This document shows, piece by piece, positions 3,023 to 48,402 of a stretch of DNA of 64,000 bases. This stretch comes from Candidatus Omnitrophota bacterium (lineage in GTDB: Bacteria; Omnitrophota; Gorgyraeia; Zapsychrales; Zapsychraceae): contig JADFYJ010000002.1 in assembly GCA_015233115.1 (NCBI GenBank), positions 38,016-102,015 on the forward strand, read 5' to 3'. The position numbers and the translations under genes are program-made. The first letter of the stretch is position 1. Each line of letters begins with the position of its first letter. The notes beneath the pieces were generated by a model. That model worked only from the letters and a program-made list of their open reading frames with translations, searched no databases and was not told the origin of the DNA.

Positions 3023-3035
3023 TCTTAATCTTGTC

Positions 3036-3117
3036 GTAGGGGCGATCTCCCGATCGCCCGCATAAAAATTATTAAAATTTTATATTTAATCGGACAGGTC
3101 GGGGACCAGTCCCTACG
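3036..3117. repeat. degenerate copy of GC-rich palindromic MITE-like element (family A)
   Basis: gtaggggcgatctcccgatcgcccgc, then an AT-rich spacer, then gtcggggaccagtccctacg. The left TIR is identical to those of the elements at ~4098 and ~38326. Confidence 0.55.
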
Positions 3118-3131
3118 CAAATCAATAAACA

Positions 3132-4073
3132 TTATTTTAATTTTCTCAAAACCGCTTTTTTTGCTGTATCGGCGATATTAACCGCTCTCAAGCCATATTT
3201 CGCCAACAATTCATCCGGCGAACCGGTTTCTCCGAAGGAATCATGGACCGCCACCATTTCCATTGGCACCGGATAATTTTGAACCACAACTTCAGCGACA
3301 GCGCTTCCTAAGCCGCCGGCCATCTGATGTTCTTCGCTGGTCACAATCGCGCCGGTTTCTTTGGCGGATTTGATAATTAAATCTTTATCAATAGGTTTGA
3401 TCGTATGCATATTAATCACTTTAGCCTGAATGCCTTGCTTGGCTAAAATTTCAGCAGCTTCCAAAGACTCGGAAACCATGAGCCCGCTTCCGATTAAAGT
3501 CACATCTTTCCCTTCGCGCATGACAATGCCTTTACCAATTTCGAAAGGTGTTTTTTCGTCTGTCAAAACCGGCACAGCATTGCGGCTTAGCCGTAAATAA
3601 AACGGTCCAAACTGTTCTGAAATAGCTTTGGTCGCTTTAGCTGCCTCGACAGTATCCACCGGACAAATGACCCGCATGTTCGGCAGGACGCGCATTAAGG
3701 CGAGATCTTCTAATGATTGGGCTGATGCCCCGTCTTCACCCACAGTCAACCCTGCATGCGTGCAAATAACCTTGACGTTTGTGTTGTTGTAACACACGTC
3801 CATGCGTAACATATCATACGCACGGTTAGTCATGAAAACAGCGAATGAATTAATGAATACTGTAAACCCTTGGAGAGCTAATCCAGCGGCAGTGCCGACC
3901 ATATCCTGTTCAGCGATACCAACGCTAAAAAACCGTCCAGGAAATTCTTTTTTAAAATATTCAGCGCGAGTCGCGTCTTCCAAATCCGCAGACACCATAA
4001 CAATTTTATCATTAACTTTCCCAAGCCTGACTAATTCTTCCCCAAATCCATCTCTTGTCGCAACTGGTTTCAT
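3132..4073 (-). CDS. transketolase, C-terminal subunit (pyrimidine-binding plus C-terminal domain)
   Basis: Sequence typical of the transketolase central and C-terminal domains (GIAEQDMVGTAAGLALQG, ICTHAGLTVGEDGASAQ). Split transketolase with the N-terminal subunit encoded directly upstream. Confidence 0.85.
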   Translation of the reverse strand: MKPVATRDGFGEELVRLGKVNDKIVMVSADLEDATRAEYFKKEFPGRFFSVGIAEQDMVGTAAGLALQGFTVFINSFAVFMTNRAYDMLRMDVCYNNTNVKVICTHAGLTVGEDGASAQSLEDLALMRVLPNMRVICPVDTVEAAKATKAISEQFGPFYLRLSRNAVPVLTDEKTPFEIGKGIVMREGKDVTLIGSGLMVSESLEAAEILAKQGIQAKVINMHTIKPIDKDLIIKSAKETGAIVTSEEHQMAGGLGSAVAEVVVQNYPVPMEMVAVHDSFGETGSPDELLAKYGLRAVNIADTAKKAVLRKLK

Positions 4074-4097: not shown

Positions 4098-4227
4098 GTA
4101 GGGGCGATCTCCCGATCGCCCGCTTACAAAATATTCGCTTTTTTATTTCAATAAAACAAACAAAAAAACCTGAAATGTTAAATTTATAAATCTTTTATAG
4201 TGCGGGCGATCGGGAGATCGCCCCTAC
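4098..4227. mobile_element. MITE-like element, family A (~130 bp, 26-bp perfect terminal inverted repeats)
   Basis: gtaggggcgatctcccgatcgcccgc, then an ~80-bp AT-rich core, then gcgggcgatcgggagatcgcccctac. About 90% identical to the copy at ~38326-38468. Each TIR is itself internally palindromic. Confidence 0.7.
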
Positions 4228-4247: not shown

Positions 4248-5069
4248 TCAACTTAACTCTTTCAAAGCCGCAGCAAGTTGTTCATTATTCGGCGCTTTGC
4301 CGTGCCACGCTGATTTTAATTCCATAAATGATACGCCTTTACCTTTGATAGTATTAGCTATAATCACATAGGGTTTGCCGGCGTTTATTTTACCGAAATC
4401 CTGATATGCTTTTAAAACCTCTTCAATTTTATTTCCGTCGATTTCAGCGACCACCCATCCGAAACTTTCCCATTTGGCTTTCAAAGGTTCCAGATTCATG
4501 ATGTCATTGACCATGCCGTTTTCCTGAACCTTATTATAATCAACAATCGCGCACACATTATCGAGTTTAAACTGCGCCGCGCTCATGGCCGCTTCCCAAA
4601 CCGACCCTTCCTGAATTTCTCCGTCGCCCATCAAACAATACATTTTCTGGTCTTTTTTAAGCAATTTAGCGCCGATCGCCAAACCATTAGCCACAGCTAA
4701 ACCATGCCCTAAAGAACCCGTGTTGAATTCCACGCCCGGCGTTTTTGTGGTCACATGGCCTTGCAAAATCCCGCCTAATTTGCGGTATTTTTTATATTCA
4801 TCTTTGGAAAAATATCCCGCGTTTGCCAAAACCGAGTAAACAACCGGCGACACATGGCCTTTGGAAATAATCACCATATCGCGGCCCGGCCAGCGGGGAT
4901 TTTTCGGATCATGACGAAGCTGACAGTCATATAACGCGACTAATATTTCCACTGCGGATAAAGACCCACCCGGATGGCCTGAACCAGCCATATTCGTCAA
5001 TTCCAAAATCTCCTGACGCACTAACAGCGCCTTTTGTTTTAATGCGTTAATGTCACAACAATTTTGCAC
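4248..5069 (-). CDS. transketolase, N-terminal subunit (TPP-binding)
   Basis: GSGHPGGSLS and GDGE..EG TPP-binding motifs. 273 aa. Confidence 0.85.
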   Translation of the reverse strand: MQNCCDINALKQKALLVRQEILELTNMAGSGHPGGSLSAVEILVALYDCQLRHDPKNPRWPGRDMVIISKGHVSPVVYSVLANAGYFSKDEYKKYRKLGGILQGHVTTKTPGVEFNTGSLGHGLAVANGLAIGAKLLKKDQKMYCLMGDGEIQEGSVWEAAMSAAQFKLDNVCAIVDYNKVQENGMVNDIMNLEPLKAKWESFGWVVAEIDGNKIEEVLKAYQDFGKINAGKPYVIIANTIKGKGVSFMELKSAWHGKAPNNEQLAAALKELS

Positions 5070-5170
5070 AGTTTCACCTCATAAATATTAGGATTGATAT
5101 ACGATAAAATAGGACTTTAGGATACACCTTTTTGAAAGGAGCGTCAATGAGTTCTTATGAAAAAATTCAG

Positions 5171-5398
5171 GTCACAAGGACACAAAGTCACAAGGTCACA
5201 AATAAAAATAAAAGTACAAAATAAAAAAACGACTGGTAAGCAGTTAACACCGAAGATAACTCAAACTGGTGATAAAATTTTGTTACATGTTTGACAAGTT
5301 ATGACTTTGCGTATATTTTTTTTGGCATTATTATTCGTTTTTTCCGAATCTTTTCTATCCTTTGTGACCTTGTGACCTTGTGACTTTGTGACTTTGTC
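5171..5398. repeat. IR-flanked intergenic element, family B (TIRs are tandem gtcacaaR octamers)
   Basis: Left arm ggtcacaaggacacaaagtcacaaggtcacaa. Right arm cctttgtgaccttgtgaccttgtgactttgtgactttgtc. About 160-bp AT-rich core. The right arm supplies the stop codon of the large REC-domain gene. Confidence 0.6.
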
Positions 5399-8832: not shown

Positions 8833-8942
8833 ATTTTTGCCCCCTTCTATAATAATCGGCCTACACTGAAAATATATACTATATTTGGAGAAAAACAAGA
8901 GCTGTAGGAAGATTATAAGAAAGCGGTTACAATAAAAAGTTA

Positions 8943-8973
8943 TAAAGGTGGTAAAGGTATAAAGGTGATAAAG
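8943..8973. repeat. tandem nonamer repeat (taaaggtgR x3.5), family G
   Basis: ataaaggtggtaaaggtataaaggtgataaagg. The reverse complement recurs at ~61366-61395. Confidence 0.4.
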
Positions 8974-8983
8974 GAAAATAAAA

Positions 8984-9030
8984 CTAAAAATAAAAAAGCC
9001 GCAGGTTGTGAACAATTATCCAACCTGCGG
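8984..9030 (-). terminator. rho-independent terminator downstream of the SET/speH-like operon
   Basis: Perfect 10-bp stem ccgcaggttg/caacctgcgg, followed on the minus strand by cttttttatttttag. Confidence 0.5.
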
Positions 9031-11916: not shown

Positions 11917-12034
11917 AAATTTAATTTTTTTGCTAATAATTTTCCATCTTCAACAGTTTTTTATGTATCGTAGGACTTTTTTAAATTGTCAATTGGTCAT
12001 TTTTATTTAGTTTTTGTCCCATCAATCGCTTTTT

Positions 12035-12069
12035 CTTTGTTACTCTGTTACTCTGTCACTCTGTTACTT
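12035..12069. repeat. solo arm of family C repeat (tandem gttactcN heptamers)
   Basis: ctttgttactctgttactctgtcactctgttactt, preceded by cccatcaatcgctttt as at ~14651. Overlaps the radC stop codon. Confidence 0.5.
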
Positions 12070-12827: not shown

Positions 12828-12981
12828 GGTCAGAAGTCAAACGTCAGACGATAAATAAGGGATGTGGGGCAAAAACGATTGCGTGAAAAACGATAATTTT
12901 GTTGCGGGAGATCAGGAGATCTCCCCTACGAAAAAAACGAATATCTTATTTCGCCTTTAAACTATTTTCCCTTTGTGACCT
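12828..12981. repeat. composite of repeat fragments (family B-like arms flanking a family A right TIR)
   Basis: ggtcagaagtcaaacgtcagacg ... gcgggagatcaggagatctcccctacg ... cctttgtgacc. Confidence 0.45.
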
Positions 12982-14312: not shown

Positions 14313-14324
14313 TGGTAACCTCCC

Positions 14325-14697
14325 TTATAGTAACCGAGTAACAAAGTAACAGAGCAAAAGCAAAAAACTATTGGTTTAAAAAACATAAAACCAAAAAGCC
14401 AGATTAACCGAATAACAAAGAAACCGAGCGAAAGTAGAAAACGATTGGTTTAAAACATACAAAACAAAAAAATCATAACTAAAAATTAATTTGAAAAAAT
14501 CAAATAAAGTAACATAAAAATCGTATTGAAAAACTTTGATAAAACAACTCGTAAACATCACTGTCTTTTATCTTTTAAAACCAATATTCCCATTCGTATT
14601 TAAATTTTTTCACCAATCTTTTTTTTCGCTGCCACTTTGACACGTTTTGTTTTTCACCCATCGCTTTTACTCTGTTACTCGGTTACTCGGTCACTTT
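14325..14697. mobile_element. IR-flanked element, family C (~370 bp)
   Basis: Left arm agtaaccgagtaacaaagtaacagag. Right arm ctctgttactcggttactcggtcact. Internal direct repeats aacNattggtttaaaa(a)cataNaaaac. The right arm encodes the last 6 codons and stop of tsaD. Confidence 0.6.
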
Positions 14698-15652: not shown

Positions 15653-16972
15653 CTATTTTTCGAATTTTTTATACACCTTGATTCCATTCAATACATTGAT
15701 CGCGCCTTGAACCTGATTATCATTCAAAAGCTCGTCATGAATTTCAGCCGCGCGTTTTTTGGCCGCGTCTTGCTCCTGAACCGGAGCAGGCTTATTCGTC
15801 TTCTCTACATTTTCAAAAATAGAATCCACATCTTTTTCATTCGGATCTTTTTTCTTGGCATCTTCATCATCCTTCTTAGGATAAATCCGTTCGATCACCA
15901 CATCCGGAATAATACCCTTTTCATGGATCGAAACACCAGAAGGAGTAAAATACTTTGCCGTCGTTAAACGAAGACCGGAACCATCCGGCATCGGAATCAC
16001 GGACTGCACAGACCCTTTTCCGAATGATTTTGTACCTAAAAGAACCGCTCGTTTATTATCTTTTAATGCACCGGCTAAAATCTCGCTTCCGGAGGCGCTT
16101 CCCTGATTGATCATAACCACTGTCGGCCAAGGGACCACATGGTCTTTGTTCGTCGACAAAGCGATTGAATTCTGACTTTCTCTGCGTCCTTTGGTTGAAA
16201 CAATAGTCTTGCCTTCAGGTAAAAACTCTTCGGTAATGGCAATGGCTACATTCAACAGACCGCCCGGATTATTACGGAGATCCAGAATCAACCCTTCCGC
16301 TCCCTGAGTTTTTAACTGCTCAACTGCTTTATGAAATTCCTTATATGAATCTTCACGGAATTCCGTTAAACGGATGTATCCGATATTATCCTTTAAAATT
16401 TGGGTATTTTTAATGTCCTGGATATGTATGATTTCACGGGTTAACGTGAATTCCAAAATTTTCGAATCACTCTCCCTCAAAACCGTAATCGTGACTTTTG
16501 TGCCGGGTTCTCCGCGCAACTTTTTGACAGCGTCATTCAAGGTCATATCACGGGTGATAACATTTTCAATCTTAACAATACGATCGCCGGATTTAACACC
16601 TGCCCGCCATGCCGGCGTGTCTTCGATCGGAGTAATAATCGTCAACAAACCATCTTTGACCGTAATCTCAATTCCCAAACCTCCAAATTTTCCTTCTGTC
16701 TCGGTTTTCAAATCTTTGTACTCATCTGGATCAAGAAATTGACTGTGCGGATCCAGAGATGATAATAGACCTTTCAGCGAGCCATAGATCAAATCTTTCG
16801 GCTTAACATCATCCACATATTCCGTCTTGACCGTGGTTAACGCGTAGCTGAACAACTCGATTTGCGTGAACAAATCATCTTTAACCGCGCGGTCCATTTG
16901 TGAAACAGCCAATGTCCCTATCGATAAAACACCGACAATACCGATAATGGCTATAAAAATTTTCTTACGCAT
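15653..16972 (-). CDS. ctpA: carboxyl-terminal processing protease (S41 family, PDZ domain)
   Basis: Signal/TM N-terminus, PDZ domain (GDRIVKIENV) and S41 catalytic region (GSASGSEILAGAL...SFGKGSVQ). Confidence 0.85.
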   Translation of the reverse strand: MRKKIFIAIIGIVGVLSIGTLAVSQMDRAVKDDLFTQIELFSYALTTVKTEYVDDVKPKDLIYGSLKGLLSSLDPHSQFLDPDEYKDLKTETEGKFGGLGIEITVKDGLLTIITPIEDTPAWRAGVKSGDRIVKIENVITRDMTLNDAVKKLRGEPGTKVTITVLRESDSKILEFTLTREIIHIQDIKNTQILKDNIGYIRLTEFREDSYKEFHKAVEQLKTQGAEGLILDLRNNPGGLLNVAIAITEEFLPEGKTIVSTKGRRESQNSIALSTNKDHVVPWPTVVMINQGSASGSEILAGALKDNKRAVLLGTKSFGKGSVQSVIPMPDGSGLRLTTAKYFTPSGVSIHEKGIIPDVVIERIYPKKDDEDAKKKDPNEKDVDSIFENVEKTNKPAPVQEQDAAKKRAAEIHDELLNDNQVQGAINVLNGIKVYKKFEK

Positions 16973-18401
16973 CTAAAATCCTCCTTTTGATGATCTCCCC
17001 AATCATTTTAGGGTTTGCTTTCCCTTGAGTTTTTTTCATGGTTTGTCCAACCAAAAAACCTAATACATTTTCTTTTCCCGATTTTATTTCCCCTACTGCT
17101 TTAGGATTTTCTTTAATGATTTCGTCAACAATTCTAGTCAACGATTCCTGGTCTGACACCTGCGCCAGACCATTTTCCTGAATGATCTGTTCCGCGCTTT
17201 TGCCGGTATCCAACATAATTTTGAGGACATCTTTTCCAACTAAGTTGCTGACTACGCCGTCCTCAACCATTTTGATCAATCCAGCCAGAGAAGCTGGGAC
17301 TAATTTAAGTTCTGCCAAACTGGATTTGCGGTCACTGATTTCCCGTAGAAGTGGACCGTTAAGCCAATTAGCAATTTTTTTCGCCTCCGGATATAAAGCA
17401 ACGCATTCTTCAAAAAATTGCGCAATTGTTTGATCCAGTACTAAGATGAAAGCGTCATACCCATTTAAATTATATTGATTTTTAAACCGTTCTAATTTCG
17501 CATACGGAAGCTCAGGCAATGACTGACGGATCTCTTTAATCTTGTCCGCTTTAACCACAAACGGCACTAAATCCGGGTCAGGAAAATAACGGTAATCATG
17601 CGCCTCTTCTTTACTGCGCATAGAAAGCGTCATTTGTTTGTTATCGTCCCACAGCCGGGTTTCCTGCACTATTTTTTCGCCCGATAAAATAACTTGCGTA
17701 TGACGAATCACTTCATATTCCAAAGCCGCTTTGACAGCTTTAAAAGAATTCATGTTTTTTATTTCCGACTTGGTGCCCAGCTTGGTCTCTTCTCTAGGCC
17801 GGATCGAAACATTCGCGTCGCAACGTAAACTCCCTTTTTCCATGTCGCAATCAGACACATTCAAATATTGCAGCGTCAATTTCAAAACCTGCAGATAATC
17901 ATACGCTTCCTGCGGCGACCGCATATCTGCTTCAGTCACGATTTCTAACAGCGGCGTACCTGTGCGATTATAATCGACCAGAGTTCCGTCCGCTTCATGC
18001 GTTAATTTCCCGGCGTCTTCTTCTAAATGCGCGCGATTAACCCGAATTTTTTTTAACTCGCCTTTTTCCATCGGGATCATTACCAAACCATTTTTCGCAA
18101 CTGGAAAATCATATTGCGAGATTTGATACGCTTTAGGCAAGTCAGGATAATAATAATTCTTGCGGTCAAATTTGATGTACGGATTAATTTCACAGCCCAG
18201 GGCCAAACCAACCTTAATCCCATACTCCAAAACTTTTTTATTCAAAACCGGTAAAGTCCCGGGTAATCCCAAACAGACTGGGCAGGTCAAAGAATTTGGC
18301 TGTTCACCAAATTGATTCGCGCAAGCGCAAAATATCTTCGTCGCTGTTTTCAGCTGAAGATGCACTTCCAACCCAATAACTGTTTCAAAATCCATTGACA
18401 T
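16965..18401 (-). CDS. gatB: Asp/Glu-tRNA(Asn/Gln) amidotransferase subunit B
   Basis: MSMDFETVIGLEVHLQLKT and overall GatB architecture. Confidence 0.9.
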   Translation of the reverse strand: MSMDFETVIGLEVHLQLKTATKIFCACANQFGEQPNSLTCPVCLGLPGTLPVLNKKVLEYGIKVGLALGCEINPYIKFDRKNYYYPDLPKAYQISQYDFPVAKNGLVMIPMEKGELKKIRVNRAHLEEDAGKLTHEADGTLVDYNRTGTPLLEIVTEADMRSPQEAYDYLQVLKLTLQYLNVSDCDMEKGSLRCDANVSIRPREETKLGTKSEIKNMNSFKAVKAALEYEVIRHTQVILSGEKIVQETRLWDDNKQMTLSMRSKEEAHDYRYFPDPDLVPFVVKADKIKEIRQSLPELPYAKLERFKNQYNLNGYDAFILVLDQTIAQFFEECVALYPEAKKIANWLNGPLLREISDRKSSLAELKLVPASLAGLIKMVEDGVVSNLVGKDVLKIMLDTGKSAEQIIQENGLAQVSDQESLTRIVDEIIKENPKAVGEIKSGKENVLGFLVGQTMKKTQGKANPKMIGEIIKRRILDA

Positions 18402-18420
18402 ATTTAGCCTTAAAAATTAA

Positions 18421-18680
18421 TTGTAACAATGTGCGCCGTCCGCAGGAGCTCCCGGCACTACTCGGACATTACGTCCTCGGTCGCAGTGTAACAATGCCAA
18501 AAAAACTTGAAAAACAAATCTATTAACCGCGTGCCCAAACTCAAGGTTGGCGTTAAAACCGAATCCCCGAGCGAGTTTCCTTGGCGCTTCGCCAAGGTTG
18601 TTTGAGCGAAGGATTTGGTTTAAATGCAAACCGCCCTCCCACGCGCTTCATTAAAAAATAACAATGTAGCATTGTTACGT
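18421..18680. repeat. structured intergenic insert between gatB and gatA carrying a family E repeat unit
   Basis: ggagctcccggcactactcggacattacgtcc is the reverse complement of the gacgYaatgtccg..agtagtgccg..agctccc units at 38476-38558. tgtaacaatg direct repeats, an aacaatgtagcattgtt palindrome, and a ccttggcgcttcgccaagg hairpin. Confidence 0.5.
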
Positions 18681-18682
18681 TT

Positions 18683-20092
18683 TTATCGATTTTGCTCATA
18701 CGTATAGCCAATTCGAAACAGTGTTTCTTCCGCGAAGGGTTTGGCCATAATCTGCAAACCAATCGGTAATCTGTTTTTTGAAAACCCACACGGAATCGAG
18801 ATGGCCGGGATACCGCTTAAATTCGCGGGTGTTGTAAAAATATCGTTTAAATACATACTGATCGGATCATTCATTTTCTCACCTAATTTAAACGCAGTCG
18901 TTGGCGCAGTCGGCGTAATAATCGCGTCCACCTCTTCAAACGCCCGATCAAAATCCATTTTAATCATGGTACGGACTTTTAAACCTTTCAAATAATACGC
19001 GTCATAATAACCTGACGATAATGAATACGTTCCCAGCATAATCCGACGTTTAGCTTCATTCCCAAAACCCTGATCGCGCGTTTCTTCATACATGTCCACC
19101 AGATTCGTTTTCCTCACCTGTGACGGCTGCGCGCGCAAACCATATTGCACACCGTCAAACCGCCCCAAATTAGAACTCGCTTCAGCTGTCGCCACAATGT
19201 AATAACACGCGATCGCGAACTTGCTATGTGGCAAAGAAATTTCTTTAAACTCAGCACCGCAAGATTTCAAAAGCAGAACAGCATCCATGACTTTTGTTTT
19301 AACTTCCGCGTCTAAGCCTTCGATAAAATATTCTTTAGGCAGGCCGATCTTTAAACCCTTCACGTTCTTGACCAAAGCCTTGGTATAATCCGGGTTGGGC
19401 ACATTAGCGGACGTCGAATCTTTAGGATCATAACCGGAAATAATATTCATGAGCAGAGCTGAATCAGTCACATCTTTAGTAATAGGACCAATCTGATCCA
19501 AACTCGACGCGAACGCTATTAAACCAAAGCGGGAAACCCTGCCGTAAGTGGGTTTAAGCCCAACCACACCGCAATAAGCGGCAGGCTGACGTATAGAACC
19601 GCCAGTATCTGAACCCAACGCCCATATGGCTTCGTTCCCTGCTACAGCCGCCGCTGAACCACCGCTTGATCCACCCGGAACTCGCGACAAATCCCAGGGA
19701 TTTCTGGTTGGACCATAACATGACGTCTCTGTTGACGAGCCAAAAGCAAACTCATCCATATTCGCGTGTCCGACAAAAATCGCGCCGGACTGTTTTAATT
19801 TTCCAATAACTGTCGCGTCATAAGGCGCTATAAAATTTTTTAAAATTTTAGAACAGCAAGTTGTTTCTGTGTCCTTGATGCAAATATTATCTTTAATCGC
19901 AATCGGGATAGGAATATTCTTCCCATTAAATGCTGGAAGCTTATCCCCAGAAAATACTTGCGCATAAGCGTGGATATCTTTTTCACTCTGGCTAATTTGC
20001 TCCAGCACAGAACCAACTACGTCGACAACCTTAAGCTGTTGCGCGGCGTATTGATCTAAAATTTCATGAGCGGTAAGCTGAGCTATTTTCAT
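18683..20092 (-). CDS. gatA: Glu-tRNA(Gln) amidotransferase subunit A (amidase signature)
   Basis: [12 protein letters not shown] amidase signature. 469 aa. Confidence 0.9.
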
Positions 20093-20376
20093 TACTCAAT
20101 AACTTTCGGAACTTTGTAACAGCCCTTGTCTTTCTGGACAGAAAATTGCAATGCTTCATCTTGGGACAAAGAGGGATTGACCACATCTTCCCTGAACACA
20201 TTTTGGAGAGGCAAAGCATGGCTAGTCGGCTTGACATCCGTGACATCAAGTTCGTTTAATTGGTCAATATATTTTAATATACATTCCAAATCATTTGCCA
20301 ATAACTGCGCTTCCTCCTCTTTGAGGTGAATCCGCGACAAACTGGCAATTTTTAAGGCGTGTTCTTTAGTAATCAT
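20092..20376 (-). CDS. gatC: Glu-tRNA(Gln) amidotransferase subunit C
   Basis: 94 aa. [22 protein letters not shown]. Start/stop overlap with gatA. Confidence 0.8.
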
Positions 20377-20489
20377 AATTCAAGTCTCATGGTCACAAAA
20401 ACAAAAAAAATTAATGAAAAAACGGATGAAAATTAGTCCATATCATAACATCGGGATACCGGATTGACAAGAAAAAGTAAAATAGAAAA

Positions 20490-24265: not shown

Positions 24266-24291
24266 GGTTAATCCTCAGTATTGTTAATTAA

Positions 24292-24450
24292 ACGTATATA
24301 GTATGTGGTATGTGGTATGTGGTATATCGTAAAAACGAGAATTAATAATTTTGATCAAACGACAAAAAAAACGTATTTTATTCCTAATAAATTCTTAATT
24401 TGTCTCACCAATCGTTTTTCACCACATACGACATACCACATACTACATGC
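24292..24450. repeat. IR-flanked element, family D (TIRs are tandem gtatgtR heptamers), empty copy
   Basis: Left arm gtatgtggtatgtggtatgtggtat. Right arm accacatacgacataccacatactacatg. About 95-bp AT-rich core. The right arm supplies the mfd stop and last codon. Confidence 0.6.
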
Positions 24451-29344: not shown

Positions 29345-31357
29345 TTAAGGGTGAATTTTTTTTATTTTGCTCAGCAAATCCAATAACTGAGGATTCTGCG
29401 GATTCAGGTTCAAACCAGCCTGCACAGCCGTAACGGCATCATCGTAACGGTTCATATGCTCCAAAAATTTAACGAGTTTTATATAGGCAGGCACATAAGA
29501 CTGATCGATCTTAAGTGCCTGGATATAAAAGTCAAATGCACAGACAGCCTTTTTTGCTGTTACACAAATATCTCCCGCATTTACTAAATTTTTTTTATCC
29601 TTCAATTCCCGCAATAGTTGTTGCGACCAATTTTGAAATTGCTCCTCATGCCCGGTAAGATAAAACATTCTTAATAAATTCAATTTGGTTAACTCATCAG
29701 CTGGCTCGATGTCCAAACTTTTTTCATACATTTGGGCCGCTTTTATAAAATTTTTTTCTTTTTCATAAATAGAGGCTAAATTATCAACGACTATCTTTTG
29801 ATCTGGGTCCAAAGCCATCGCTTTTTCAAATTCAATTTTTGCCATTTCATTGTTTTCCAAATCACGGTACGCGGCGCCCAAGTTGCTATAACTAATAGCT
29901 TGATGAGGTTCCACTGCTATGGCTTTTTTAAAATAAGTTACGGCTAAATCAATTTTTTTTTCGTTAGCCGCGATGACTCCCAAATTAACTAAATATTTCC
30001 ACTGATTAGGTAAATCGCCCAAAGATTTATTGAACAATTCATAAGATTCAGAATAATTTTTTTTATTAAAATAAGCGTTAGCCTGAAAACCATCAATCAA
30101 ATCAAATTTTTTAGTTAAAATATGTGACCGCCAAAAATTACAATAGTTAATTTCATCGCTCCAAATATTGTTCATAACCCACGACTGACTGATCAGAGCC
30201 ACCACCATGCTTGCGATCAAACCAGGCGTTAAAATTGTTGAAACTTTCTTCCCTAAATTATCCAATAACCATGCGGTTAATGCAAAAAAACCAATAGAAT
30301 TAAAAAATAACCAATGAGGCTCCAAAACGATTCCAACACGGCTAAACGACAAAGACGCCAAAAAAACCGGAATAATCCCTAGAATAAAAAATAAAAGCAA
30401 AAAACCATATACGTATATCTGCTGCTGCATCCATTTAATAATCATCCAACCCATTATGATAAAAAAGAACAACAACGCGGTAATCCACGCTGGCGCCCCT
30501 TGGACTACAACCGGCGTTCCCCAGATTAATACCACTCCCCTGGGATAAAATAATTGGCTCACATACCAAAACCAAGCTTTAGAAACCGTTGCTATAAACT
30601 GCCACGGAGAAATCCCCATAGTTTGATATATTTTCCAATACGAACCGCCCACGTCAGAAAATCTCATCCGGAATAATAAAATAAATCCTAAGATAATAAA
30701 AAATAAAGCACAATATTTAAATGTTTGGCGGATGGATAAGCGGTGAACCATCAAACACAACGCGGCCGCGTAAAATGGTAAAAAATACGCTGTTTCATGA
30801 CACAAGCAGGATAACAAATAAAAAATTCCCGCTAACCCCATCATGCCCCACTTAACCAGCCCTTTCCCCGAATATATGATACTTTTATGCATCAGCCACA
30901 AAGATGCCGCCATAAAAATCAACTGAACAATCAGCACGTTAGCCGTTATGTAATTCACTAACATCCCATTAATGGGGTGAACACAAAACAAAATTGCCGT
31001 GACCCCTGCCACCCAAAATTGGCGGGTCAAAGTCGACAAAAAAATGAAAATAAAAATACAAAGAATGGCAAAAAGGAAACAATTTAAAACATGATAACCA
31101 GTAGGATTATAGTGGAACAACGCAAAATATCCGACTTGCAGCACACTCCGTAAGGGACGAAAATGAGCAGAACCGCTGCTATCAGCTAATCCCTTGCCAG
31201 AAGCAAAAGCAAAAAATAAATTTTTGATATTATGCGTATGATAATTTGCTACAAAATGATTACCATCATCCATCATAAAGGCATTATGCAAACTATTGAA
31301 ATACGTCAAAAACGAAAGAAACAACAGCGTTACGATTATACCAATATTTTTTTTCAT
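29345..31357 (-). CDS. TMTC-like membrane protein: N-terminal GT-C (PMT/DUF1736-like) polytopic domain plus C-terminal TPR repeats, paralog 1
   Basis: LTYFNSLHNAFMMDDGNHFVANY..HFRPLRSV matches the YxNSLxNxFVWDD..HxRPL pattern of TMTC/PMT_2 family proteins. About 10 TM segments, then TPR motifs. Confidence 0.55.
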   Translation of the reverse strand: MKKNIGIIVTLLFLSFLTYFNSLHNAFMMDDGNHFVANYHTHNIKNLFFAFASGKGLADSSGSAHFRPLRSVLQVGYFALFHYNPTGYHVLNCFLFAILCIFIFIFLSTLTRQFWVAGVTAILFCVHPINGMLVNYITANVLIVQLIFMAASLWLMHKSIIYSGKGLVKWGMMGLAGIFYLLSCLCHETAYFLPFYAAALCLMVHRLSIRQTFKYCALFFIILGFILLFRMRFSDVGGSYWKIYQTMGISPWQFIATVSKAWFWYVSQLFYPRGVVLIWGTPVVVQGAPAWITALLFFFIIMGWMIIKWMQQQIYVYGFLLLFFILGIIPVFLASLSFSRVGIVLEPHWLFFNSIGFFALTAWLLDNLGKKVSTILTPGLIASMVVALISQSWVMNNIWSDEINYCNFWRSHILTKKFDLIDGFQANAYFNKKNYSESYELFNKSLGDLPNQWKYLVNLGVIAANEKKIDLAVTYFKKAIAVEPHQAISYSNLGAAYRDLENNEMAKIEFEKAMALDPDQKIVVDNLASIYEKEKNFIKAAQMYEKSLDIEPADELTKLNLLRMFYLTGHEEQFQNWSQQLLRELKDKKNLVNAGDICVTAKKAVCAFDFYIQALKIDQSYVPAYIKLVKFLEHMNRYDDAVTAVQAGLNLNPQNPQLLDLLSKIKKIHP

Positions 31358-33393
31358 TTATTATGTATTTTACTCTCGGCCTGCCATTGCCGTATTTCAC
31401 GCATCAATTGCAATAGCTGAGAATGGTTCGGATTCATTTTTAATCCCATTCGGACAGTCATTAAAGCGTCATCAAACCTCCCCATATTTCCCAATAACTT
31501 TCCAAACTCGACATATACCAAGGCATACGCCGGATCAACCTTCACGGCCTTTGTATAAAAATCCACGGCCAACATAACCTGGTTTGCCAATGCGCAAACA
31601 TCTCCAGCGGAAACGAGATTATTTTTATCATTCACTTCTTTTATCAGCTGTTCAGAATAACTTTTAAATTTTTCAATATTTTTTTCATTATAATACAATT
31701 TTAATAAATTTAATTTTAAGCCCTCTTCAGCCGGTTCAATCTCTAACGCTTTTTCATAAAGTTTTTCCGCCGCTTTAAAATTTTTCTCCTTCACATAACA
31801 AAGCGCCAAATCTTCAACTGTAGCCATTTCATTTGGATCCAAATCAAAAGCTCTTTCAAAGGCCAACCTGGCTTGATCATTCTTTCCTAACTCCCGATAG
31901 GCAACACCCAAATTCGTATAGATAGCAGCTTTATTAGGTTCCAAATCAATAGCTTTTTTAAAATAAGTTATGGCCACATCAAATTTTTTCTCATTAAGCT
32001 CAATTAAGCCTAAATTCACTAAACTTTTCCACTGATAAGGCAAATCAGCCAATGATTTTTCAAATAATGGCCGGGATTTGGAATAAAACTTTTTTTTAAA
32101 ATATGCCGTGGCTTGAAAAAAATCTATCAAATAAAAATTTCGGACTAAAATATTTGATCGCCAAAAATCACAATATTTTATTTCATCCCCCCATATACTG
32201 TTCATCACCCACGTCTGGCTTAACAGAGCAAAAACAATACTTGCGATTAACCCGAATGTTAATATTTTAGAAACTTTTTTCGTCAAACGAACCAACAACC
32301 ATGCCGCCACCACAAAAAAACCAATAGTATTAAAATAGACCCAATGCGGTTCCATAACAATACCTATGTCACGGAATAACATCGCAGCCAAAAACGTAGG
32401 AACAAAACCCAATGTCAATAACAGAACAAAAAAACCAAAAACATTTTTTTGATCACGAATTAATTTTAAAATCGCGAAAATAATCCCCCCCCAAAAAAGC
32501 ATTAACGCCGCGATCCAGACCCATACCATGCCAGAGACCACAGCAGGTGTGGCCCATATCAACACTACTCCTTGAGGATATAACAATTGGCCTAAATACC
32601 AAAACCAAACTTTTGAAACTGAAGCAAAATACTGCCCTGGATTTATTCCCATGCTTTGATATGTCTGCCATAACGAACCACCCACGTCAAAATACTTAAC
32701 CCGGAATAACAAAATTAAACCTAATACAAGAAAAAGAACAAAACAGTATTTTATAGTTTGACGAATAGATAATCGATGAACAACCAAACAAAGTGCTGCC
32801 GCATAAAAAGGAAGGAAATATGCCGTCTCATGACACAAACAAGACAATAAATATAAAAACCCAGCTAATCCAAGCAACCCACACTTAACAAATGTTACTG
32901 ACGAAGAAACAATACTCCGCTGGACTAAACCCAAAGATGCCATCATAAAAATCAACTGCACGATAAGTCCATTTGCCGTAATATAATTCACCAACATCCC
33001 ATTGATCGGATGAACACAAAATAATACCGCGGTTACTGCTGACACCCAGAAATCTTTGGTGAGATCCAGCGAAAAAAAGAAGATAAAAACACAAAAAATA
33101 AAGAAAAGAATGCAGTTTAAAACATGATAACCAAAAGAGTTATATTGGAATAAAACGAAGTTGATGACTATGATAATACTATGTAGGGGACGAAAATGCG
33201 TTGCCCCGGTTTCAATCACTGATCCCTTACTGGAGGTAAAAACTGAAAATAAATTTTTGATATTATGCGTATTATAATTTGACACAAAGTGACTAGCATC
33301 ATCCATCATAAACGCATTATGCAAACTGTTAAAATAAGTCAGAAAGGACACCAGCAGCAAAGCTAATATCAAAAAAATATTTTTTTTCGACAT
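31354..33393 (-). CDS. TMTC-like GT-C/TPR membrane protein, paralog 2 (tandem duplicate)
   Basis: Same architecture. By alignment with paralog 1 the likely start is MSKKNIFLIL (~33393); the track ORF begins at 33462. Stretches of >80% nucleotide identity to paralog 1 near the 5' ends. Confidence 0.55.
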   Translation of the reverse strand: MSKKNIFLILALLLVSFLTYFNSLHNAFMMDDASHFVSNYNTHNIKNLFSVFTSSKGSVIETGATHFRPLHSIIIVINFVLFQYNSFGYHVLNCILFFIFCVFIFFFSLDLTKDFWVSAVTAVLFCVHPINGMLVNYITANGLIVQLIFMMASLGLVQRSIVSSSVTFVKCGLLGLAGFLYLLSCLCHETAYFLPFYAAALCLVVHRLSIRQTIKYCFVLFLVLGLILLFRVKYFDVGGSLWQTYQSMGINPGQYFASVSKVWFWYLGQLLYPQGVVLIWATPAVVSGMVWVWIAALMLFWGGIIFAILKLIRDQKNVFGFFVLLLTLGFVPTFLAAMLFRDIGIVMEPHWVYFNTIGFFVVAAWLLVRLTKKVSKILTFGLIASIVFALLSQTWVMNSIWGDEIKYCDFWRSNILVRNFYLIDFFQATAYFKKKFYSKSRPLFEKSLADLPYQWKSLVNLGLIELNEKKFDVAITYFKKAIDLEPNKAAIYTNLGVAYRELGKNDQARLAFERAFDLDPNEMATVEDLALCYVKEKNFKAAEKLYEKALEIEPAEEGLKLNLLKLYYNEKNIEKFKSYSEQLIKEVNDKNNLVSAGDVCALANQVMLAVDFYTKAVKVDPAYALVYVEFGKLLGNMGRFDDALMTVRMGLKMNPNHSQLLQLMREIRQWQAESKIHNK

Positions 33394-33400
33394 AATATTA

Positions 33401-33757
33401 TCATTGGAGCGGTATGGTTCTATAAAAACACGATCTTTGATTAGTGTGACATGCGGCATCAACTTGTTCTACTTTAATTAAAAGGCAATCGCAGTCGCAG
33501 TCATAGCAGACTTCTTTGACAAATTGAAAATGCCCGGACGTCATGCCTTTAACCCAAAATTCCTGCCGAGAACGGGACCAATAGCACGCTTTTTTATCTG
33601 TTAACGTCCGACGAAGTGATTCATTATTCATCCAGGCCATCATCAAAACATCACCGTTCTTGACATCCTGAACGATAACCGGAATGAGCCCTTCTCGAGA
33701 ATATTTAAGCTGTTCAAGACTATCTATCGTAATTATTAATTCTTCAGGTTTGGTCAT
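33401..33757 (-). CDS. hisI: phosphoribosyl-AMP cyclohydrolase
   Basis: [30 protein letters not shown] and a Cys-rich metal site. Confidence 0.85.
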
Positions 33758-35839: not shown

Positions 35840-35866
35840 AATTTAATCCGAATTTTGATGGTTCAC

Positions 35867-36002
35867 GTATGTCGTACGTAGTATGTGGTATGTAGCGAAA
35901 AAAATCAAAATAATATTTTTAAAAAACTGGATTCCCACCTTCGCGGGAATGACAAGTCTAATCGTTTTTCGCTCTACATACGCATACCACATACTACATA
36001 CC
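35867..36002. repeat. IR-flanked element, family D, empty copy between hisH and hisB
   Basis: Left arm gtatgtcgtacgtagtatgtggtatgtagc. Right arm ctctacatacgcataccacatactacatacc. Internal attccc-acct-tcgc-gggaat hairpin. Confidence 0.6.
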
Positions 36003-36007
36003 ATTTT

Positions 36008-36619: not shown

Positions 36620-36637
36620 ATGTTTTGTCCTATAAAA

Positions 36638-37073
36638 GTATGTGGTATGTAGTATGTCGTATGTAGTAAAAACTACAATTTTTTAATCAAAGCCTTTGTC
36701 ATTTTAGATACAGATTCGAGATCTTGCAATATCGGTTTCGATAATTCAGATTTTAAAAAACCTAATTCTACTGAAATTATAACCTGTGTTTCTAACTCAG
36801 CAACTGAACCCATAACAATATATAAAAACTGTCGATTTTTTTATTATGATATCTTCTAAAACCTTCTGCGATATTTGATGGTATCGAGATGGCTGCCCTT
36901 CGCATTTGAGATACTAATCCAAACTGTTCTTCTTGAGGATAATTTTTTGTGACTTTATAAATATTTTTTACTATTTCAACACCAAACTTCCAAATTCTTA
37001 AATCCTGATAAGTTGTTATCTTTTCGTCCATTGCTTTCCCACCACATACGACATACCACATACTACATACTAT
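36638..37073. mobile_element. IR-flanked element, family D, loaded copy carrying a four-helix-bundle protein gene
   Basis: Left arm gtatgtggtatgtagtatgtcgtatgtagta. Right arm accacatacgacataccacatactacatact. Same TIR family as the empty copies at ~24292 and ~35867. Confidence 0.6.
36680..37061 (-). pseudogene. four-helix-bundle protein (23S rRNA intervening-sequence protein family), frameshifted
   Basis: The track ORF 36792-37061 ends at ...AISIPSNIAEGFRRYHNKKIDSFYILLWVQLLS. The +2 frame continues QFLYIVMGSVAELETQVIISVELGFL...KMTKALIKKL, which is the conserved C-terminal half (GSxxELETQ). A single-nucleotide indel lies in the aaaaaaatcgacagttttt tract. Confidence 0.7.
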
Positions 37074-37075
37074 TT

Positions 37076-38299: not shown

Positions 38300-38325
38300 T
38301 GTCTTGGAAATCCTTGTAAAGTGTT

Positions 38326-38468
38326 GTAGGGGCGATCTCCCGATCGCCCGCTTACAAAATATACGCTTTTTTATCTAGATAAAACAAACAAAAAAACTAA
38401 ACCTAAAAACCCTGGAATGTTAAATTTGTAAATCTTTTTGGTACGGGCGATCAGGAGATCGCCCCTAC
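38326..38468. mobile_element. MITE-like element, family A (~143 bp, 26-bp TIRs)
   Basis: gtaggggcgatctcccgatcgcccgc, then an AT-rich core, then gtacgggcgatcaggagatcgcccctac. Sibling of the copy at ~4098. Confidence 0.7.
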
Positions 38469-38475
38469 GACCAAG

Positions 38476-38558
38476 GACGCAATGTCCGCAGTAGTGCCGT
38501 AAGCTCCCTCGAACGGCCGACCGACGACGCAATGTCCGACCTAGTGCTGGAAGCTCCC
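38476..38558. repeat. two direct 33-bp family E units spaced 50 bp
   Basis: gacgcaatgtccgcagtagtgccgtaagctccc and gacgcaatgtccgacctagtgctggaagctccc. An inverted copy of this unit lies in the gatB-gatA spacer. The track ORF 38371-38589 is made of these repeats and is spurious. Confidence 0.5.
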
Positions 38559-38592
38559 GTGAGCAGGGCAACAGCATCCCATCTGTCATTCT

Positions 38593-45432: not shown

Positions 45433-46005
45433 TTAAGAACAACTCTGCGCCTCTGGATAAGAACTCATATTAATTGCTGCTCGCGGATTCTTAATCGGAT
45501 CCCATGGATGAGTAGCATCTATAACTTGTGTCGGGTCTGCCTGCAAAGTTAAATCAATGCGAATTTTGCAACCCGTCCATTGAAGAGAAGCCGTCACTAC
45601 TTTCTTGGAAAGTATTTCCGCTCCTGCTACCGCGCAATTAGCCGGATTCTGAGTAGCCGAATTATCAAATCTACAAATTGTATTCTTTGTACTTCCGCTG
45701 GCATCATAACGGTAAACGACCCACTTTGAAACAGAAGCATCTTTTTGAAACGATATTTGATTGGCAGAAGCAACAATTGTAGGTGATTCTCCAACATTCC
45801 CTTGGGTCTCTAAAGCATCCTTACTAATCCGCGCTGCTATAGTCATAGCTTCAATTTTCAATGTCGCAGAAGTTTGTGTGGTAACGCCGAAACGTCTCAT
45901 GGAGATATCAAACCCAATGATACCAAGCATAACCACGCCGATCAAAGTCGTTGCGATTAGAAGCTCCGCTAGTGTAATCCCTTGTTTATTAAATTTTTTT
46001 ACCAC
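45433..46005 (-). CDS. minor pseudopilin with prepilin-type N-terminal domain (PilW/GspJ-like), copy 2
   Basis: KQG|ITLAELLIATTLIGVV prepilin cleavage/methylation motif with E+5. 190 aa. Confidence 0.6.
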   Translation of the reverse strand: MVKKFNKQGITLAELLIATTLIGVVMLGIIGFDISMRRFGVTTQTSATLKIEAMTIAARISKDALETQGNVGESPTIVASANQISFQKDASVSKWVVYRYDASGSTKNTICRFDNSATQNPANCAVAGAEILSKKVVTASLQWTGCKIRIDLTLQADPTQVIDATHPWDPIKNPRAAINMSSYPEAQSCS

Positions 46006-46029
46006 CTTTACCTCCTCATCCTCATTTTA

Positions 46030-46389
46030 TCAATTCGGCCAGGACACATTCATGTAAATATTTCTGGCTTTAGACGAATCATCTACCACATAATAATTGA
46101 TGGTACAGCTGGTATTTGAATCAGCGTTATATACTATCGTATGCGTGCCACTAGGCTTGAGTGGATTGCTGTTGTCATTCCAAATAGTGGCATCAATCGA
46201 TGTCCGGAATGTCGCTAAAATATATTTTGCCGCGTATAAACATCGCGTCTCGCTCGATGATTGGGTGACTTTAGGACGAAGCATAGTCGTGGTCGCCATT
46301 ATCCCTGCCGCAGCGATCAAAAAAATAACCGCTGTTATAACCACTTCGACCATGGATGCTGCTCCGCGCCTTTTAACAGATTTTAACAT
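46030..46389 (-). CDS. small pseudopilin-like protein (PilV/GspI-like), copy 2
   Basis: RRGAASMVEVVITAVIFLIAAAGI hydrophobic N-terminal helix. Paralog of 47007-47351. Confidence 0.5.
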   Translation of the reverse strand: MLKSVKRRGAASMVEVVITAVIFLIAAAGIMATTTMLRPKVTQSSSETRCLYAAKYILATFRTSIDATIWNDNSNPLKPSGTHTIVYNADSNTSCTINYYVVDDSSKARNIYMNVSWPN

Positions 46390-46440
46390 TTTATTAACCT
46401 ATTTTTACTCAAATTTCTGTACTATCTATTCATTATCTCT

Positions 46441-47019
46441 TCAAAAAGAACTCAACACACAACTAAACCCTCCGCTTGAAGTATAACGCGGATTTTTCAT
46501 GATATCAACTACATATCCTGGACTCATATCATAGACCAGAGTAATGGTCACTGAGACAGCATTTTGTTGCTGGACAATATTATATGCTTCAACATTGTCG
46601 AGTAATACCTCTGCCGTAGCCAGATTACACACGCCAGTATTGTCCGATGGGATACATCTTAACAGCCGATGATCATTCGTAAACCAATAAGTGATCCAAG
46701 TATCATCAGCATAGGTCGGAGTTGGGGTTGGGTTGCGGTCTACCCTCACAGTTAATTTGGAGGGCGGAAATACTTGCAAACCTTTATCTAATTTGGAGCC
46801 TATAGCCCGATAAACATTTCGGGACATATCCGCAAAAACACTATCTGCTCTAATGCGAAGAATGGAACTTCTTTGTTGAGTGGATTGAAACCTTTGGAGG
46901 GTCAAACTAAAGCCCATAACGCCTAACAAGATCACGCTGACTAAAACCGTAGCTGTGAGAAGTTCAGAAAGAGTCAGGCCTTTTTTTTGAGGTGCAAAAT
47001 TCATAATTAATCCGGCCAA
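46441..47019 (-). CDS. minor pseudopilin with prepilin-type N-terminal domain (PilW/GspJ-like), copy 1
   Basis: KKG|LTLSELLTATVLVSVILLGVMGF. Paralog of 45433-46005. Confidence 0.6.
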   Translation of the reverse strand: MAGLIMNFAPQKKGLTLSELLTATVLVSVILLGVMGFSLTLQRFQSTQQRSSILRIRADSVFADMSRNVYRAIGSKLDKGLQVFPPSKLTVRVDRNPTPTPTYADDTWITYWFTNDHRLLRCIPSDNTGVCNLATAEVLLDNVEAYNIVQQQNAVSVTITLVYDMSPGYVVDIMKNPRYTSSGGFSCVLSSF

Positions 47020-47351
47020 GTAGCGTTCAGATAAACATTTCTAGCGCCCGTCGTAGCATCATTTATGATCAGATAACTAATCGTGCAGCCGTCTATTGTT
47101 TTACTATATTTTCCTGGATATAAAGGATTGGTAGAACTGTCCCATGTGCTGGCATCAACATTAAACCGTAAAGAAGACAATATATTTTTGGCCGCATACA
47201 TGCATTCTACCTCTTTTGACGATTGAACAGCTTTAGGCCGCAACATAGAGGTTGTCCCAATAATCGCTCCGGCCGCGACCAAAAAAATAACCGCGGTAAT
47301 GACTATCTCAACCATAGACACTGTGCCGCGATTTTTAAGAGATTTTAACAT
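47007..47351 (-). CDS. small pseudopilin-like protein (PilV/GspI-like), copy 1
   Basis: NRGTVSMVEIVITAVIFLVAAGAI. 114 aa. Confidence 0.5.
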   Translation of the reverse strand: MLKSLKNRGTVSMVEIVITAVIFLVAAGAIIGTTSMLRPKAVQSSKEVECMYAAKNILSSLRFNVDASTWDSSTNPLYPGKYSKTIDGCTISYLIINDATTGARNVYLNATWPD

Positions 47352-47420
47352 ATTGCTTTTCTATAAATTTGGGGCTCTTTTTTATAAGGGTACACCTTCC
47401 GGAACCACTCGTTTTCTTTA

Positions 47421-47858: not shown

Positions 47859-47916
47859 ATTCGCGCAAATTACTTGCCATCATAAACGCCGTTCAAGTCA
47901 TGCGCTCCTTTAAAAA

Positions 47917-48351: not shown

Positions 48352-48355
48352 TTTT

Positions 48356-48392
48356 TAAAAAGGGGAGAGCATGACCCTCCCCTCATAATTAA
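48356..48392 (-). terminator. rho-independent terminator between the two pilA copies
   Basis: Minus strand reads ggggagggtcatgctctcccc followed by ttttttaaaa. Confidence 0.5.
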
Positions 48393-48402
48393 CAAAATAG
48401 TT

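Follow-up and report, generated by a model that had tools for sequence, protein, structure and literature searches.

Organization of the gatCAB locus

We analysed a 64,000-nucleotide stretch of a metagenome-assembled genome (MAG) of a Candidatus Omnitrophota bacterium (contig JADFYJ010000002.1, positions 38,016 to 102,015; the whole stretch is called the window and is numbered from its first letter), and here we deal with the intercistronic spacer that separates gatA from gatB within the gatCAB operon. The genes gatC and gatA overlap by 1 nt and gatB follows gatA after a gap of 281 bp, as was described in a first-pass annotation made from the letters of the window. That annotation proposed three explanations for the hairpins and repeats in the gap, i.e. 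another mobile repeat, a processed RNA or a small RNA (sRNA) embedded in the operon. We consider it highly probable that interspersed hairpin repeats accumulated in a tight junction and gave rise to the spacer, which would be a derived, non-coding mosaic of them. The locus is arranged as follows:

20092-20376, minus strand: gatC (gene call)
18683-20092, minus strand: gatA (gene call), stop codon TAA at 18683-18685
18402-18682, minus strand: gatA-gatB intercistronic spacer, 281 bp, a lineage-specific repeat mosaic that is absent in the relative L001
18408-18411, minus strand: Shine-Dalgarno-like AAGG of gatB, 6 nt before the gatB ATG, unpaired in the minimum-free-energy and centroid folds
16965-18401, minus strand: gatB (gene call), ATG at 18399-18401

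Almost all genes of the window run on the minus strand. For GatB there is an NCBI protein with 100% identity (P0001, 476 aa, from a 'Candidatus Omnitrophica bacterium' MAG) whose start is placed 2 codons downstream (18393-18395 instead of 18399-18401; MDFETV...), in which case the spacer would be 287 bp long. The upstream ATG (MSMDFETV...) agrees with the MSQKFETV of the relative, and its spacing to the AAGG is better than that of the NCBI start.

The gatA-gatB junction in related genomes

In the comparison with gatCAB loci of relatives, which the first-pass annotation had suggested, the spacer is wholly absent from the closest relative, nDJH6bin14 (GCA_015233195.1; locus L001; GatB 84% identical), where only 2 bp lie between gatA and gatB. 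A block of about 18 kb around gat is collinear between the window and L001. In a second relative (L014) the spacer is 3 bp long, and in a third it is 109 bp long and consists of an unrelated double hairpin. We interpret the spacer, on the strength of these alignments, as a derived insertion into an ancestrally tight, translationally coupled junction.

Given that the genome is repeat-rich and that MAG assemblers can mis-join at repeats, the insert might also be an artefact of such repeat-induced mis-joining. We regard this as the least probable of all the alternatives considered, as the gene order on both sides agrees with that of relatives over about 18 kb, gatA and gatB are intact with the insert placed exactly between stop and start codons, and the central palindrome of the insert, being single-copy, is itself no repeat junction.

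The wider survey covered 66 loci with adjacent gatA and gatB genes and GatB identities of 49-84%. The spacer is at most 9 bp long in 47 of them (the genes overlap by 4 nt in 25), 15-109 bp in 14 and more than 200 bp in the remaining 5. The longer spacers are mostly strong hairpins that belong to unrelated families, among them the TCATTCCCGCGAAAGCGGGAATCC family and a 7/8-mer inverted array; unrelated hairpin repeats occupy the junction in L013, L016, L022, L028, L035, L067, L045 and L056. Because all three spacers longer than 281 bp hold ORFs (open reading frames; 99, 152 and 174 aa), the window spacer is the longest ORF-less one in the survey. Junctions of at least 32 bp are found in 16/66 cases for gatA-gatB and in 6/48 cases for gatC-gatA; we do not claim gatA-gatB as a special insertion hot spot from this nominally higher rate.

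Three metagenomic relatives have junctions of a different kind, with ORFs and no hairpins. These are L062:2166-2465, which encodes a 99-aa CxxC...CxxC protein, L077:2037-2495, with a 152-aa ORF that is NUDIX-like by eye, and L027:509-1605, where about 1.1 kb with several ORFs lies between gatA and gatB.

Architecture of the spacer

The spacer can be divided into the following parts, listed from gatA to gatB. E denotes a repeat unit that is described in the next section, and M2 and M3 are units of what we call the right array:

18650-18686, minus strand: AT-rich hairpin GUAACAAUG-cua-CAUUGUUAU followed by U6, begins 4 nt past the gatA stop, -8.6 kcal/mol, z = -5.1
18528-18645, no strand assigned: imperfect palindrome X, 118 nt, CGCGTG...CACGCG, with the 8-bp hairpin 18579-18597 as its tip
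18498-18527, minus strand: T-rich linker GTTAATAGATTTGTTTTTCAAGTTTTTTTG that leads into the right array, as judged by comparison with other array elements
18487-18496, minus strand: right-array unit M2, CATTGTTACA, which forms a perfect 10-bp inverted repeat with the gatA-side copy
18436-18480, minus strand: E unit core CCGAGGACGTAATGTCCGAGTAGTGCCGGGAGCTCCTGCGGACGG, sense to the gat genes, flanked by CTGCGA (18481-18486) and CGCA (18432-18435)
18422-18431, minus strand: right-array unit M3, CATTGTTACA, which forms a 9-bp inverted repeat with 18670-18678

The individual features that were named at first reading are present, i.e. the perfect 8-bp hairpin CCTTGGCG-ctt-CGCCAAGG (18579-18597), the palindrome TAACAATG-tag-CATTGTTA (18659-18677) and the direct repeats TGTAACAATG (18422-18431 and 18487-18496). 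They exceed chance, as judged from 3000 dinucleotide-preserving shuffles of the spacer: P is 0.0003 for a non-low-complexity 8-mer with at least 4 copies, 0.04 for a direct repeat of 10 nt and 0.034 for a perfect hairpin of 8 bp. The insert is bracketed by inverted repeats, a perfect one of 10 bp (18488-18497/18669-18678) and one of 9 bp (18423-18431/18670-18678); taken alone, an inverted repeat of at least 10 nt arises in 37% of shuffles.

Folded as RNA, the spacer has z = -3.8 on the sense strand and z = -3.0 on the antisense strand. In the minimum-free-energy fold the pairing of M3 closes the whole insert by the helix GUAACAAU/AUUGUUAC, so that only the 4 nt past the gatA stop and the 21 nt ahead of the gatB start are outside it. 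Palindrome X folds with -51.5 kcal/mol on the plus strand (z = -5.4) and with -49.3 kcal/mol on the sense strand (z = -3.2). No second copy of X was found in any sequence compared, and the pattern of its tip has 0 matches in viral sequences.

The hairpin next to gatA has a 9-bp AT-rich stem with only 2 G-C pairs, followed by U6 on the sense strand. It is below the threshold of our terminator scan, which requires at least 3 G-C pairs in the stem. The hairpin and U6 are shaped like a weak intrinsic terminator, and the predicted fold suggests that weak termination could take place there.

The same hairpin can be read as a degenerate left array of 8-mers (GTAACAAT GCTACATT ...). More generally, we read the TGTAACAATG repeats and the palindrome beside gatA as array units, GTAACAAT and ATTGTTAC, that would account for both. 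The CATTGTTACACTG of the spacer is identical to part of an 8-mer array of the relative (L007:7850-7885), which reads GTGACAAT GTAACAGT GTAACAAT GTGACAAT on the plus strand of that locus. If E is taken out from between them, the two TGTAACAATG copies are about 16-17 nt apart, i.e. two 8-mer units. We also considered TGTAACAATG as a 10-bp target-site duplication of E and rejected it, as the copies do not abut E (CTGCGA and CGCA intervene) and match the 8-mer array units of L007.

The E unit

The first-pass annotation had noted in the spacer an inverted copy of a 33-bp unit that occurs twice downstream of alaS. The copy itself holds (29/32 positions are identical to alaS copy A by BLAST); the length has to be revised, since the unit spans about 46-53 nt. 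By nhmmer the match in the spacer extends over 18432-18483 on the minus strand (E = 1.9e-15). The other copies of the window form a pair:

38468-38570, plus strand: two tandem E units with a 50-nt period (copy A, 38468-38520; copy B, 38518-38570) in the alaS-hisD spacer, antisense to transcription, beside a doublet (38323-38471) that resembles a REPIN, i.e. a hairpin-forming doublet of repetitive extragenic palindromes (REPs)

In the sequence compared, which amounts to 64 kb here and about 46 kb in the relative, 4 E copies are known, 3 in the window and 1 in the relative, and all are intergenic. The copy of the relative (in L007) lies antisense between a comFC-like gene and lptF/G genes. The window copies are located in junctions that are short in relatives in 3 out of 3 cases: besides gatA-gatB, the alaS-hisD junction measures 293 bp here as compared to 44 bp and 32 bp in two relatives.

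The boundaries of E become visible in another repeat of the relative. Two paralogous elements, which we call family F (L096:11256-11424 and L007:2556-2764), can be aligned over their full length with a single exception, an indel of 49 nt, and this indel is E. The sequence CGA flanks the filled F site on both sides and occurs once in the empty site, CCTGCGA/GAC. This pair of filled and empty sites is direct evidence, at the level of sequence comparison, that E behaves as a discrete insertion module, and the predicted ends of the element are taken from it. The flanks of the window copies are similar: CTGCGA-E-CGCA at gat, CTACGA-E-CGA for alaS copy A and CGA-E-CAA for copy B. As for a target-site duplication, only the 3-nt CGA is common to both flanks of E, which falls short of what defines a miniature inverted-repeat transposable element (MITE). 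Multiple copies and presence/absence polymorphism between relatives are observed for E; X is single-copy. Family F itself is MITE-like in nDJH6bin14, 170-210 bp long with the terminal inverted repeats GGTATTTCGCGGAACG and CGTCCGCTTAAATACC. No family F copy was found in the window, and palindrome X has no significant similarity to family F or to any other locus compared.

E has no terminal inverted repeats. Its left part is a hairpin, GGAC-gyaat-GTCC, and its right half combines GTAG with an imperfect palindrome downstream of it, GCCGGGAG/CTCCCGCG. The tetranucleotide reads GTAG in 3 out of 4 copies (gat, alaS copy A and L007) and CTAG in alaS copy B. The complementarity of GCCGGGAG and CTCCCGCG is 6/8 positions in L007, 5-6/8 in the gat copy and 3/8 in alaS copy A. 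The folding energies of single E units (4 copies, both strands) give z values of about 0 relative to shuffles. We thus rejected E as a structured RNA: z is about 0 and the conservation is found in the sequence (AGCTCC, AATGTCCG), not in base pairing. Because it is the sequence and not the pairing that is conserved, we suggest that E may be recognized by a protein.

The gat and L007 copies are identical at 39 of 41 positions (95%), and at the third codon positions of gatCAB the window and the relative agree in only 43-50% of cases. As E is this similar across species while synonymous sites are saturated, it would appear to be either constrained or kept uniform by ongoing copying.

Pattern searches beyond these genomes added no further copies. 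Among the E-pattern hits in the genome collection 10 out of 11 are attributable to chance, as by our own estimate a similar number is expected for 18 specified bases in 596 Gb. The L011 match, which extends a little further than the pattern (27 bits) and is located inside a 773-aa ORF of a betaproteobacterium, was rejected as a coincidence of the pattern-based selection. There were 0 matches in the metagenome collection, and the single viral match (L095) was judged to be chance.

Repeat families at other junctions

The gat spacer is one of several extra, repeat-filled spacers that distinguish the window from the relative: mfd-surA (177 vs 91 bp), gatA-gatB (281 vs 2 bp) and tsaD-mgtC (362 vs 12 bp). 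The relative carries extra material of its own at other places. Many co-directional junctions of the window contain repeats, including those inside the his operon and between the split transketolase genes. The commonest intergenic element of this genome is what we call the array-inverted-repeat element, found at co-directional junctions:

5070-5397
11917-12068
14313-14674
24266-24442
35840-36007
36620-37075
61276-61407 (partner 8934-8993)

The sites include mfd-surA, tsaD-mgtC, hisD-hisB and hisB-hisH. The design is the same throughout: tandem 7-8-mers directly past the stop codon lead into AAAAACGATTGG(TGA) and a core rich in A and T, and a T-run then precedes the inverted array. The two arms measure 28-60 nt with 75-93% complementarity, and the 7-8-mers vary by locus. 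Of this design the gat spacer has array units, their inverted arrangement, a start 4 nt past the stop codon and the T-run, with a degenerate left array and no inner motif; a similar T-run precedes the right array in 24266-24442, 35840-36007, 36620-37075 and 14313-14674.

The hisD-hisB element (36620-37075), with 34-nt inverted arms, encloses a frameshifted gene for a 23S-rRNA intervening sequence (IVS) protein (PF05635, E = 8e-22). In a relative with 78% HisD identity (L097:4572-5087) a PF05635 gene is intact (144 aa) and lies between hisH and hisA, with inverted 7-mer arrays (AGACCGA... / TCTTCAG...) on either side. The arrays that bear PF05635 have an IVS-like design and are found in mRNA operons, not in rRNA. 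In our search of the literature on Omnitrophota repeats and on PF05635 cassettes outside rRNA, nothing relevant was found beyond a paper on the Coxiella IVS.

Another explanation, which is compatible with a mobile-repeat origin, is that the gat insert acts like an IVS: it may be co-transcribed and form a closed domain, and RNase III cleavage of its hairpins would then separate gatCA from gatB-ctpB and determine how stable the two parts are relative to each other. In the classical 23S rRNA IVS, terminal inverted repeats pair into a 28-bp stem that encloses an S23p ORF, and the IVS is cleaved by RNase III (PMC4990558). The sister array elements have long terminal inverted repeats, and two of them surround a PF05635 gene, the one at hisD-hisB within its 34-nt arms and the intact one of L097 between its arrays. 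The gat fold is also closed as a whole by GUAACAAU/AUUGUUAC and has a central hairpin of about 118 nt. However, the elements described here lie between protein-coding cistrons rather than in rRNA helices, and the gat copy has no ORF and arms of just 9-10 bp, its closing helix being just 8-10 bp long. The central hairpin is interrupted on the sense strand and is a clean long hairpin only on the antisense strand. Moreover, the GatCAB heterotrimer requires all three subunits, and a cut between gatA and gatB has no obvious benefit. RNase III cutting would be carried over to this locus by analogy, and we consider such a role for the insert unlikely.

Several other repeats accompany the array elements. 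REP-like units, GTAG followed by GGGCGATC-N4-GATCGCCC, occur singly or as inverted doublets that are REPIN-like:

3032-3062
4098-4227
12896-12932
38323-38471

The segments 3082-3118 and 61292-61328 were listed alongside these units. One doublet is located between the split transketolase N-terminal (4248-5069) and C-terminal (3132-4073) genes, and another is beside the alaS E units. A second class of the window has the form GCGTAGGG..GGTCCCCGACC, and the relative has GCGTAGGGGCACG..CGTGCCC at mfd-surA. The hairpin TTGTCATTCCCGCGAAGGTGGGAATCCAG of the hisB-hisH junction (35927-35955, minus strand) belongs to the same family as the gatA-gatB fillers of two Omnitrophota-like contigs (L013:2894-2966 and L016:2425-2480), and this family appears to be widespread.

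Duplication is also seen among the coding sequences of the window. The genes 47917-48351 and 48403-48834 are tandem paralogues whose products carry a pilin-type N-terminal methylation motif (PF07963); they share 89% identity over 300 nt and belong to a run of similar small genes (45433-48834). Two adjacent large paralogous genes (29345-31357 and 31354-33462) have about 72% DNA identity over more than 600 nt, and in the relative the corresponding genes (L096:16519-20590) encode proteins with tetratricopeptide repeats (TPR).

Transcription of the spacer and a possible regulatory role

The operon has a strong promoter sequence:

20442-20470, minus strand: operon promoter upstream of gatC (TTGTCA, 17-nt spacer, TATGAT, extended -10 TG), conserved in the relative

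In L001 a toxin-antitoxin pair of the Phd/YefM-ParE/YoeB type, absent from the window, is located between a thioesterase gene and gatC (L001:7680-8188), and the gatC promoter is kept downstream of this insertion. Within the spacer no sigma-70-type promoter was found on either strand; the best candidate read by hand, TTGAGT-16-TAGATT at 18544-18517, has only 8/12 matches. Rfam gave no match to the spacer at the gathering threshold, and at E <= 10 there was only snoRNA/sRNA noise far below threshold. The alaS-side E units likewise had no Rfam match, with sub-threshold long-hairpin (miRNA-precursor) hits only, on the neighbouring REPIN-like doublet. The ORFs of the spacer (70, 45 and 43 aa) have no Pfam match. 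Because the insert has no promoter or RNA family of its own and a conserved promoter precedes gatC, it is most likely transcribed passively, as part of a gatCAB-ctpB mRNA. Processing of the co-transcribed hairpins is possible by analogy with other systems.

Two explanations would assign a dedicated function to the spacer RNA. Firstly, it could be a cis-regulatory leader of gatB (an attenuator, or riboswitch-like or T-box-like), in keeping with a fold that is stronger than that of shuffles and with the hairpin and U-run directly past gatA. Against this, the spacer is missing from the closest relative and from most other relatives, and it has no Rfam match; furthermore, it is made of units that are present at unrelated loci, and other lineages have unrelated hairpins at the same junction. 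We find this explanation very improbable. Secondly, the spacer could harbour an independent gene for an sRNA or antisense RNA. Here the cleanest hairpin is on the plus (antisense) strand (z = -5.4), and the tip hairpin followed by TTGTTTG scores terminator-like on that strand. However, this 'terminator' is merely the tip of the long palindrome, there is no promoter-like site on either strand of the spacer although the same scan does find the sigma-70-consensus promoters of this genome, and no homologue was found elsewhere in the sequences searched. An independent RNA gene appears, if anything, a shade less probable than the leader.

Taken together, there is no sign in the sequence of a dedicated regulatory RNA in the spacer. 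For the sRNA and processed-RNA ideas of the first-pass annotation no supporting evidence was found: there is no Rfam match and no promoter in the spacer, single E units fold like shuffles, and E copies occur in both orientations relative to transcription. The other suggestion of that annotation, a mobile repeat, is the one that the data favour: relatives are without the spacer, both a filled and an empty site are known for E, and what else the spacer contains is similar to repeats at other junctions.

Comparison with known repeat systems

It is instructive to compare the gat insert and E with the short repeats of other bacteria. Several features are shared with REPs, with bacterial interspersed mosaic elements (BIMEs) and with the systems of REPINs and REP-associated tyrosine transposases (RAYTs) of Enterobacteria, Pseudomonas and Stenotrophomonas. 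The defining REP features are a GT(A/G)G tetranucleotide that is conserved at the 5' end and a palindrome directly downstream (PMC3686654). REPs are also numerous and located almost solely between genes, and a REPIN-RAYT system includes one RAYT (Y1 transposase) gene with its cognate REPs on either side. The right half of E has this form, GTAG followed by an imperfect palindrome, and may be compared to the Stenotrophomonas maltophilia REP SM8, GGTAGTGCCGGCCGCTGGCCGGCA (PMC3686654); the window also has clear units of GTAG and GGGCGATC-N4-GATCGCCC. In both cases short hairpin repeats are found between co-directional genes or inside operons, form mosaics with other motifs and are transcribed, here most likely, together with their neighbouring genes. 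As in REPIN-RAYT systems, the family is retained from one species to another. There are also differences. E has an additional conserved 5' hairpin module, its palindrome is weak, with 6/8 positions where it is best kept and with decay in the alaS copies, and single units fold like shuffles. Only 4 copies are known, and no RAYT was found among about 37 ORFs of the window or around the L007 copy. We therefore place E only partly among REPs proper, with the GTAG head present and the palindrome weak.

Miniature elements derived from IS200/IS605 (palindrome-associated transposable elements, PATEs) have no terminal inverted repeats, carry hairpins near both ends and insert 3' of a short specific sequence. 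E is similar in as much as it is without terminal inverted repeats, has hairpins near both ends, inserts directly 3' of (G)CGA and ends in a similar sequence. It differs in that no TnpA or Y1 transposase was found in the ORFs scanned, that both orientations occur on what is apparently one replichore and that its cleavage sites are predicted only.

MITEs that reside in operons, such as the Correia elements of Neisseria, the pneumococcal BOX and RUP (repeat unit of pneumococcus) elements and the enterobacterial repetitive intergenic consensus (ERIC), can alter the stability, processing or termination of mRNA. The gat insert belongs to the same 100-300-bp class, it is non-coding, bracketed by inverted repeats and present or absent between close relatives, and it would form long hairpins upon transcription, as judged from the predicted fold. 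Unlike MITEs, it has no known parent insertion sequence and no clear target-site duplication, and its 118-nt palindrome is single-copy.

Origin of the spacer

We propose the following course of events. An array-inverted-repeat element, now degenerate, would have come to occupy the gatA-gatB junction, with the 118-nt palindrome nested in its core, and E would have inserted into its right array after CTGCGA. E would be a small non-autonomous module that is moved in trans by an enzyme of the HUH/Y1 type (RAYT or IS200/IS605-like), the presence of which we infer. The insert would be transcribed passively from the gatC promoter, and gatB would be translated from its own Shine-Dalgarno sequence. Judging from what is known of REPs, MITEs and IVSs, the consequences for the mRNA might include partial termination at the AT-rich hairpin and U6, and the long hairpins might either stabilize the upstream mRNA or undergo RNase III cleavage; the translational coupling of gatA and gatB would presumably be lost.

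A few observations do not fit this proposal easily. Just 4 E copies and 1 X copy were examined, and the 95% conservation of E between species could also reflect a host function. The E copies of the window occur in both orientations on apparently one replichore, which is a misfit with the strict strand bias of IS200/IS605 elements, and no transposase or RAYT is present among the roughly 37 window ORFs scanned or beside the L007 E copy. With E removed, the period of the array is 17 nt and not exactly 16. Finally, the inner motif AAAAACGATTGG, present in the clear array-inverted-repeat elements, is missing from the gat element, whose left array hardly amounts to one unit. Because of these last two points, membership in the array family, and with it the reading of the spacer as a degenerate array-inverted-repeat element with the two nested guests X and E, appears only moderately supported.

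A bolder generalization can be made, which we put forward tentatively and think rather doubtful. This Omnitrophota lineage might harbour two active, hitherto undescribed classes of elements, and both would be nested in the gat spacer. The first would be IVS-like cassettes of inverted, variable 7-8-mer arrays, some with PF05635, that colonise operon junctions of mRNAs and are excised or cut by RNase III at the RNA level. The second would be the 46-49-nt, REP/PATE-like E, which would insert after CGA, prefer other hairpin repeats and be about 95% identical across species.

Implications

For this genome the spacer is ordinary, an element of the REP/BIME/MITE kind. Many operon junctions of this MAG are colonised by several repeat families, including the E module and the inverted-array cassettes linked to PF05635, and gat junctions have repeatedly acquired unrelated hairpin elements. 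The more interesting leads are the filled and empty site of E and the inverted-array cassettes that are tied to PF05635 genes. Even in an essential, normally tightly coupled operon such as gatCAB, a conspicuous structured gap is not necessarily a regulatory RNA; the one described in this work is, in all likelihood, the debris of selfish repeats.

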